DNA from: Pirellulales bacterium
Lineage (GTDB): Bacteria; Planctomycetota; Planctomycetia; Pirellulales; UBA1268
DNA length: 64,000 bases
Assembly: GCA_044336985.1 (NCBI GenBank)
Contig: JBIIOK010000003.1
Span: 1,031-65,030 of the forward strand
Direction: 5' to 3'
Notes under the pieces: generated by a model
Seen by the model: the letters and a program-made list of their open reading frames with translations, nothing else
Told to the model about the DNA's origin: nothing
Database searches by the model: none
Part shown: positions 49,623 through 50,092 of the stretch, one piece after another
How positions within the stretch are numbered: the stretch's first letter is position 1
Layout of the letters: every line of letters begins with the position of its first letter
Program-made: the position numbers and the translations under genes

Positions 49623-50092
49623 GTAGACCGCTTCGTCCCGAAGCGGATCTGCTTCTCGTCCGCTTCATCGGGTATCAACTCGCCCAACCCGGCCCGGGGC
49701 TACCCGTACCCTCTCGGCGGACGTTCGCTACGGACATCCTGTCCTTCGCTCACTGCATGTCCGCTCGCTTCGGCATCCTGCCTGCGCTCGCTCCCATAGC
49801 CCGCGAGAAGGTACAGGCATCCCCGGGCCTCCCCGCGTTCCTTAATAAACCGTTGGAGGAGGCTTCGGGTGACCTGTACCCCGCTCGCCGGCGTTGCTGA
49901 CAAGCGAAGGCAGGATGCCGAGAGCGCAGTCAGCATCGAGCGAGCGAAGGGCATGCGGGCACCGATCCGCGTTAGCGGATTGGTCGTACGAAGCGAGCGT
50001 CCGGCGACGGGGTACGGGTCACCCGAAGCCGGGGCGGGCGAGTTGATGGCGGATAAGAGGCAGGAGATCCGCTTCGGGACGAAGCGGTCTAC
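49623..50092. mobile_element. A-family element, copy A2 (longest, bounded by inverted REP-C hairpins)
   Basis: Bounded by GTAGACCGCTTCGTCCCGAAGCGGATC at 49623-49649 and its reverse complement at 50066-50092. The interior is a long imperfect palindrome with an AT-rich centre (CCTTAATAAACC, ~49840-49851). Starts directly after the pheT TAA. Confidence 0.8.

Follow-up and report, generated by a model that had tools for sequence, protein, structure and literature searches.

A family of folded intergenic repeats in freshwater Pirellulales-type planctomycetes

What are the long palindromes that recur between the genes of this planctomycete chromosome, and what keeps them there? The window analysed here, 64,000 nucleotides of contig JBIIOK010000003.1 from the Pirellulales bacterium assembly GCA_044336985.1, is a chromosomal stretch with a G+C content of 68.5%. 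It carries four such elements, designated A1 (41417-41813), A2 (49623-50092), A3 (58143-58453) and A4 (62708-62925); coordinates are those of the window unless a locus is named. An earlier note, made from the letters of this DNA, had described the four as related, each able to fold into one giant hairpin and each lying between convergent genes. The relationship was confirmed by module pairs and by a profile search. We consider it probable that this A family is a non-coding, non-autonomous dispersed repeat of freshwater Pirellulales-type planctomycetes, comparable with miniature inverted-repeat transposable elements (MITEs) and with REPINs, the inverted doublets of repetitive extragenic palindromes (REPs).

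Unit anatomy and distribution of the family

The 22-nt module GGCTTCGGGYGMCCYGTACCCC occurs eight times in the window, each time as a member of a +/- pair within the four A elements (0.01 occurrences expected), and a profile of the repeat unit (nhmmer) matched these four loci only in the 64 kb. The profile sets the core boundaries at 41430-41771 (A1), 49676-50046 (A2), 58147-58450 (A3) and 62752-62909 (A4). The building block is a unit of ~160 nt with termini TCAAC... and ...GAAGCC. It comprises a 16-nt tail (TCAACTCGCCCAAnCC), a 22-bp stem M+/M- (GGCTTCGGGYGACCCGTACCCC) and a second stem (CCGG.CG), which encloses the hairpins X (GGGCA-TCC-TGCCC) and H (GCTGAC...GGCA-TCC-TGCC...GTCAGC). The modules picked out in the earlier note are real parts of this unit, as CCGGCTTCGGG..CCCC corresponds to stem M, GGACATCCTGTCC to hairpin X and GCTGACAAGC to the stem of hairpin H. 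The elements fall into two size classes, of 150-200 bp and 300-430 bp.

The two classes are explained by the number of units. A4 is a complete single unit (62752-62909, forward strand, E = 2.6e-45) and served as the reference copy, the first row of the unit alignment. In A1 and A2 two units are joined head to head with the tails outward, the left one being of a diverged (M') type. Read in reverse, the right halves of A1 and A2 match the A4 unit with 86.8% (167 nt) and 74% identity, respectively; the long form, 330-430 nt in length, is thus the short form doubled head to head. The left unit of A1 (41430-41576, forward, E = 3.2e-18) is 91% identical over 175 nt to that of A2, and its right unit (41616-41771, reverse, E = 2.8e-41) is canonical.

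A2 contains several nested inverted repeats. Its left unit (49676-49822, forward; model positions 2-152, E = 1.4e-21) runs through tail, M'+, hairpin X, a degenerate H region and M'-, with M'+ at 49691-49716 pairing with 49804-49829. The central loop CCTCCCCGCGTTCCTTAATAAACCGTTGGAGGA (49823-49860), delimited in an alignment of 25 long copies, separates it from the canonical right unit (49861-50046, reverse; model positions 2-159, E = 1.1e-37), whose M+ at 49861-49883 pairs with 50008-50030 at 96%. Within the right unit the alignment places a 35-nt mini-hairpin, TGCGGGCACCGATCCGCGTTAGCGGATTGGTCGTA (49954-49988), which replaces part of hairpin X'. This insert is optional. Among the 25 long copies it is found only in A2 and in four loci of relatives (L083, L061, L013 and L020), with mirrored versions in L081 and L063, and it sits further at hairpin tips in L115 and L128. 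The sampled sequence from which these and all other L-numbered loci come is the window plus 159 loci, 1.13 Mb together and a small part of each genome.

A3 is a dimer with one truncated unit. Of its left unit the 5' part alone is present (58147-58220, forward; tail, M'+ and hairpin X; model positions 2-74, E = 2.3e-12), and its right unit, on the reverse strand, is split by a 124-bp element of another family, B. Profile, module and repeat comparison identify the first piece (58230-58265; M+ and the start of H'), and the last piece (58393-58450; second stem, M- and tail) matches model positions 4-61 (E = 8.1e-12). The A3-type junction (TTACACG; joint 49747->49858) recurs in DNA metagenome contigs.

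The inverted doublet is the usual arrangement, as 14 of 15 adjacent unit pairs are in the +/- (head-to-head) order. Terminal inverted repeats are present in the form of the 22-nt M+/M-, to which dimers add the inverted 16-nt tails. Most of the 25 long copies carry one asymmetric dimer, conserved from TCAACTCGCCCAA... on the left to ...TTGGGCGAGTTGA on the right, with unrelated flanks beyond the tails. This dimer is found again at many unrelated loci of several species and has therefore been copied in one piece. These limits also decide a point on which the earlier note erred, namely that A2 ends in inverted REP-C hairpins. One copy of this GTAG REP, GTAGACCGCTTCGTCCCGAAGCGGATC, does follow the pheT stop codon directly (49623-49649, forward) and a second, inverted relative to it and 97% complementary, lies at 50066-50092 (reverse). 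The flanks of most other A copies are unrelated beyond the tails, and as conservation between copies does not reach past TCAAC.../...GTTGA, the REP-C hairpins are GTAG REPs that adjoin the element and were rejected as ends of A2.

Copies of the family are numerous. A scan of 185,579 species genomes with a 21-nt core module as query found the core in at least 96 stretches, and the true matches, among those listed, are Pirellulales/Planctomycetia metagenome-assembled genomes (MAGs) of lakes and similar waters; two Microbacterium matches lacked unit-like sequence and were dismissed as chance. The family is present in at least nine planctomycete MAGs, with at least 65, at least 39 and at least 30 unit-like segments in the three best-sampled ones. 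The DNA metagenome depth of the element is ~16-85x that of its flanks, and no plasmid-borne relatives were found. With tens of copies per genome and with site differences between related species, the dispersed, mobile-type repeat that the earlier note had offered as one option is supported.

The type of element, a structured non-autonomous intergenic repeat as in REP/REPIN, ERIC/BIME and MITE families, is well known. The A family itself is undescribed. A literature search found no published description of the larger family. An Rfam search of the window returned a tRNA as its sole match, and a search of A1 and A2 at E <= 1 gave nothing relevant (a long-hairpin match to MIR820 scored 29.9 bits vs a threshold of 196). 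As no Rfam family matches, the novelty of the family stands. Structured intergenic repeats are well studied in Proteobacteria and hardly in Planctomycetes. The family also has practical consequences: it breaks short-read assemblies, with many copies at contig ends, gives rise to spurious open reading frames (ORFs) and alters the sequence beyond stop codons. A single short ORF (49869-50138) overlaps any A element in the window, as called by a crude gene caller, the Pfam scan here having covered the flanking genes only.

Fold and covariation of the unit

All four elements fold much better than expected by chance. As DNA, A2 (49623-50092) has a folding energy of -178.7 kcal/mol vs -100.8 ± 3.9 kcal/mol for shuffled sequences (z = -19.9); as RNA it reaches -325.6 kcal/mol (z = -19.5). 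One giant hairpin per element, which the earlier note had drawn with arms of ~190 nt, is thermodynamically possible for A2. We rejected it as the conserved fold, since the local M stems are better than the giant-hairpin pairing in 13 of 13 dimers (-80.7 vs -50.9 kcal/mol). The conserved structure of a dimer is thus two folded domains side by side.

The consensus fold of 48 aligned units is branched, with an outer stem M of 16+5 bp, a second stem of 6 bp and the hairpins X and H, and 97.5% of cells across these units are paired. Compensatory changes affect 16 of its 47 pairs; slid controls give 1-4 and shuffles 7.3 ± 1.4, with none of the 500 shuffles attaining 16. In the H stem by itself, no fewer than five variants retain pairing (GCTGAC/GTCAGC, GCCGCC/GGCGGC, GGCGGC/GCCGCC, GGTGAC/GTCACC and GCTGGC/GCCAGC), distributed across both main subfamilies. 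In the diverged unit of the dimers, the outer stem covaries with its own partner and not with the far arm, one case being a compensated insertion. Conserved pairing therefore held up under covariation analysis, in a fold that differs from the giant hairpin: the supported fold is one branched domain of ~150 nt per unit. Covariation this clean makes the family a ready model for the folds that a selfish or domesticated repeat retains.

The two strands do not fold equally well. The strand that reads M...GTTGA is ~8 kcal/mol more stable as RNA in 54 of 59 units, an asymmetry that is only suggestive because the copies are related; A-C mismatches vs G-U pairs on the opposite strand number 35 vs 12. 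Hairpin X, the tip of hairpin H and REP-C share a TCC triloop (CA-TCC-TG or CG-TCC-CG), which may be a shared recognition feature or just a stable loop.

Placement behind gene ends and turnover between species

The genes of the window are housekeeping genes together with genes for PSCyt1 and DUF1501 domains, typical of planctomycetes (Pfam). Pfam also agrees with the earlier identification of the genes that flank the four elements, and each pair is convergent: PGM/PMM and sigma-70 around A1, PheT and DUF11 around A2, MscS and LysM around A3, and an S41 peptidase and a Mur-ligase/FolC-like protein around A4. In the window, 4 of 12 convergent gaps carry an A element vs 0 of 40 other gaps (p = 0.002). 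In the relatives' loci, with gap classes called by a crude gene caller based on G+C at third codon positions (GC3), A elements occupy 31 of 68 convergent, 27 of 241 tandem and 1 of 65 divergent gaps, and one copy lies inside a called gene (convergent vs tandem, p = 3e-9; tandem vs divergent, p = 0.014). The claim that A elements are found only between convergent genes is thus accurate for the window and wrong for the family; with 27 tandem-gap copies vs 31 convergent ones, it was a small-sample impression. As a rule of placement, the elements strongly prefer gene 3' ends, lying after gene ends and avoiding divergent (promoter) gaps.

The elements are also oriented. The tail end faces the nearest stop codon, which is 4-44 nt away in true monomers. 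In 37% of units, vs 7% in the background, the motif GTAG occurs upstream of the tail at a distance of no more than 45 nt; the reverse motif CTAC is at background level. This upstream GTAG is mostly a separate REP or a TAG stop codon; as read from the flanks, REP-C precedes the tail at similar spacing in ~15% of units.

Such placement raises the possibility, which we hold tentatively, that the element acts at the RNA level: the folded domains of read-through transcripts would block 3'->5' exonucleases, or would stop or insulate converging transcription. REP, ERIC and Correia elements have been described as acting in this way, and such a function would not conflict with a mobile origin, the repeat having been domesticated. 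The preference for gene 3' ends and convergent gaps, the avoidance of divergent gaps, the consistent direction of the tail towards the stop codon, the maintenance of the structure by covariation and the better folding of one strand as RNA are all as it would predict, and dimers lean towards convergent gaps (15 convergent vs 6 tandem; monomers, 10 vs 14; p = 0.07). The terminator signals speak differently. No terminator-like site or U-tract lies inside any A unit, and the MscS-like gene stops at its own hairpin ahead of A3, a canonical intrinsic terminator with a 12-bp GC stem followed by GTTTGTTTTT (58105-58132, forward), just upstream of the element. The bidirectional terminator proposed in the earlier note, understood as a classical intrinsic terminator, is therefore not sustained. 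Another terminator-like site nearby is the REP-C that adjoins A1 (41790-41808). Metatranscriptome contigs do cover the element, at an RNA depth 6-40x that of the flanks; this ratio is no higher than the DNA copy ratio, and it comes from assembled contigs that are broken at repeats, carry no strand or end information and may contain DNA. The interior of the unit, moreover, is freely exchanged in the X/H region for a B element, a ~200-nt element, the mini-hairpin or an insertion sequence (IS), and orthologous gaps hold different repeats.

This exchange is best seen at orthologous sites. Several of the relatives' loci are orthologous to the window at ~87-90% identity, and presence, absence and form of the element all differ at the same sites. 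The gap after the GlnE-like gene holds GTAG REPs only in the window (13150-13245) and an A unit with a nested B element in L021. At the A2 site, three species have the right end in common and differ in the interior: the window has the mini-hairpin there, L087 has a B element and L055 lacks both. The A4 site is occupied in one species by a unit with a compensated H variant, in one by a rearranged dimer with a REP doublet and in one by a B element, and the A3 site, too, is filled in sister species, with other inner content. Elsewhere, two species differ by monomer vs dimer at one site (L093, L081) and by A dimer vs REP doublet at another (L085, L059). The window at 13150 vs L021 is the one clean filled/empty pair, with no direct repeat and an ambiguity of at most 1 nt; in the remaining filled/empty pairs the gaps hold other repeats, which blurs the comparison for target-site duplications. 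Candidate excision alleles in DNA reads were rejected, as the joints, skipping 414-419 nt, have support of only 23-29 nt on one side and are explained by REP-C doublets elsewhere. The sister MAGs appear to come from a lake sampled over multiple years; if so, insertion and loss could be traced over time.

Mobilisation, nested elements and neighbouring repeats

None of the window ORFs scanned against Pfam is a transposase, as the earlier note had reported for the surroundings of the four elements. The wider sample contains one transposase beside A units: in L063, a 411-aa DDE_Tnp_1 protein is encoded between inverted A-unit arms. Together with the short length, the non-coding character, the many copies and the 22-nt inverted repeats of the family, this arrangement could suggest a classical MITE, derived from a DDE IS by internal deletion, sharing its terminal inverted repeats and mobilised by it. 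We find this unlikely, as the IS in question (L063:4420-5981; IS4/IS5-type, ~1,555-1,623 bp, transposase ORF at 4489-5724) has 15-nt ends of its own, AATCCTGTTCGGCAC, that bear no relation to the termini of A. Nine junctions from one MAG show this IS attached to hairpin X (GGGCA-TCC-TGCCC) at a fixed position, in different A units and in both orientations; junctions also lie in L096, L082, L074, L026, L076, L019 and L088 and in the metagenome loci L097-L159. Nor was a clean target-site duplication recovered beside A copies at the orthologous pairs compared, and no second unit(+)...ORF...unit(-) arrangement encodes a transposase.

A metagenome scan that queried the right end of the IS, and thus carried no bias towards A, returned 63 loci, in which ~56 of 62 readable IS junctions abut an X-type hairpin in A-unit context. 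Nineteen of the metagenome loci carry the IS transposase at 40-100% identity (mostly 84-100%), and the complete IS copies among them have the same ends and the same junction position. The 11-nt hairpin GGCA-NNN-TGCC is present at either end of the IS, the arrangement expected of an 11-bp duplication, with the proviso that short-read contigs spanning an identical multi-copy IS may be chimeric in their left-right pairings. ATCCTG is common to the IS end and the hairpin loop. An IS with its own ends and a fixed junction in hairpin X makes A the target of the IS and not its derivative, and the L063 transposase was accordingly rejected as the parent of A (9 MAG and 62 metagenome junctions). Nesting in A units offers a natural system for the study of structure-based target choice, the IS at one hairpin being its clearest case.

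As a separate observation, six of the loci (L135, L127, L141, L098, L102 and L110) carry right-end fragments of the IS, ~75-100 nt long and without transposase, flanked on both sides by duplicated A-unit sequence of at least 90 nt; they represent remnants or else a derivative that is non-autonomous. The same six loci frequently contain a small hairpin repeat, ACACAGGTTGACAACCTGTGCTAC.

That the copies are free-standing non-coding RNA genes, each with its own promoter and a discrete trans-acting product, is highly improbable: the branched fold covaries and the family is conserved over several species, yet no promoter-like site was found in or beside the copies, which come in both orientations and as inverted dimers, number in the tens with truncations and nested insertions, and have no Rfam match beyond the sub-threshold MIR820 hit. 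Readings as an attC site, a hammerhead or other ribozyme or a CRISPR-like array found no support from Rfam or genomic context. Integron attC sites have R''/R' core sites (RYYYAAC...GTTRRRY) and stand in same-direction cassette arrays with an intI integrase; the likeness of A is limited to TCAAC/GTTGA, its neighbours are housekeeping genes, often convergent, and no integrase is present in the window.

We therefore return to the dispersed repeat comparable with MITEs and REPINs. In the mechanism that we propose, a trans-acting enzyme would make the copies, recognising the single strand by its fold and not by plain sequence, our best guess being an HUH/Y1 enzyme (RAYT or IS200-like). Recognition of a folded single strand would explain both the compensatory pairing and why no target-site duplication is seen. 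Copies would survive where they are harmless, namely after stop codons, chiefly between convergent genes and with the tail towards the gene end, and once established they are kept through speciation. Resident copies serve as landing pads, with GTAG REP doublets entering the central loop, the B element and the 35-nt mini-hairpin entering X/H, and the IS4-like IS entering X.

Several observations weigh against this proposal. The unit has no GTAG or CGTC tag at its end and is thus not a classical REP. No cognate transposase, no parent IS sharing the A ends and no match to the RAYT-type HUH...YxxNP motif was found in the 1.13 Mb sampled, and the sole transposase beside A units uses them as its target. 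At the orthologous pairs compared, neither a clean target-site duplication nor an exact empty site was recovered, and occupation of the same sites in species ~87-90% identical means that movement is slow or old. The strand asymmetry would fit a role at the RNA level too. Finally, hairpin-templated repair, or gene conversion from one copy to another, can produce compensatory changes with no selection involved.

A bolder reading, which we find doubtful, is that the unit is a three-way junction selected for its structure, with at least 16 covarying pairs across species, and works as a folded single strand. It has two possible versions. The unit may be a "giant REP" that an undescribed enzyme of the HUH type recognises; REPIN-RAYT-like intragenomic replicators would then gain a new phylum and a size class ~5x larger. 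Or it may have been domesticated as a 3'-end RNA insulator between converging genes, the lineage having few classical terminators. Both versions would make the unit the anchor of a small ecosystem of hairpin-targeting elements, made up of REP doublets, B elements, the mini-hairpin and the IS4-like IS.

Comparison with known systems places the family close to, and outside, each of them. The REP/REPIN-RAYT system consists of GTAG-tagged extragenic palindromes and their inverted doublets, together with REP-associated tyrosine transposases (RAYTs) (Bertels & Rainey 2011, PMC3116915; Di Nocera et al. 2013, PMC3733652). Like REPs and REPINs, A elements are extragenic, many-copy and located after gene ends between unidirectional or convergent ORFs; their hairpins are kept by compensatory change, the inverted doublet is the mobile form and copies are retained from species to species. 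True GTAG REPs are found alongside A units and also nested within them. Unlike a REP, which is a single hairpin of 20-40 nt with a GTAG/CGTC tag, the A unit is ~160 nt long, branched and untagged, and unlike the REPIN-RAYT pair it has no RAYT in the sequence sampled. The ERIC/IRU and BIME repeats of enterobacteria resemble A as imperfect palindromes of 100-300 bp in transcribed intergenic regions, with insertion size variants and, under the BIME mosaic rules, a mosaic of palindromic modules. They have no sequence relationship to A and belong to another phylum, and A has a defined head-to-head dimer. Correia/NEMIS, RUP, Nezha and further MITEs of bacteria are likewise short, non-coding, dispersed families with terminal inverted repeats and stable folds, often co-transcribed; they have target-site duplications (TA for Correia) and a known or inferred parent IS, neither of which was found for A. 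Among IS that target REPs, IS1397 and ISKpn1 insert in REP loops and IS1111-family elements in REPs. As there, insertions fall at one position of a repeated palindrome, and the repeats act as safe landing sites; here, by contrast, the transposase is DDE_Tnp_1 (IS4/IS5-type) and the target is hairpin X of the A unit.

The window and the sampled loci hold other repeats too, some of them nested in A units. The B element is a further palindromic family, of ~90-125 bp, that stands free or replaces the X/H domain of A units. The copy nested in A3 (ACGGAAGCCCG...CGGGCTTCCGT, 58266-58389, 124 bp) takes the place of the H/X domain of the right unit; the others in the window stand free, at 544-634, 5374-5464, 15619-15711 and 37922-38041. 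Outside the window B elements occur in L021, L087 and L044, nested in A units in the first two. The central-loop position of A dimers holds nested GTAG-REP doublets in L029, L013, L071, L022, L003 and L063. A ~200-nt element of lower G+C (...AGCAGTTTCGGCGGAGACGGTCGGTGGGCACGCGCAGAAGAAGGGAG...CTCAACACGACCG...) is nested in A units of a sister MAG (L002:3600-3830; L004:1-110 and 4700-4806; L038, reverse, ~3200-3450); its presence at both ends of the 4.8-kb contig L004 may be an assembly artefact.

Two GTAG-tagged REP families are present in the window, with 17 and 7 copies (0 expected by chance). The first is located at 515-536, 1410-1456, 2430-2451, 5492-5513, 8498-8519, 13149-13245, 35036-35057, 36505-36526, 41395-41416, 41818-41891 and 58459-58480. 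The second, REP-C, has its seven exact copies at 3404-3430, 3657-3683, 8451-8477, 41787-41813, 62708-62734 and the two positions beside A2; its variants include compensated stem swaps (CTTCG..CGAAG vs CTTGC..GCAAG). Often the gene next to a REP takes its TAG stop codon from the GTAG (13150, 41396, 41888, 58477 and 62709). At 41815-41891, three tandem 26-bp copies of the GGCAGGCTGAAGCCTRCCCTAC REP follow one another, the last of which supplies the stop codon of the sigma-70 gene. GTAG REPs are known in Planctomycetes, where they prefer unidirectional or convergent gaps and donate TAG stop codons (PMC3733652).

Two further features of the window are of note. The stretch at 36407-38102, ~1.7 kb without a confidently called gene, contains REPs and the B element at 37922-38041. 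At 14506-16620, a bacteriorhodopsin-like gene (PF01036) adjoins a gene for beta-carotene 15,15'-dioxygenase (PF15461), a pair that amounts to a light-driven pump with its own retinal supply in a freshwater planctomycete.

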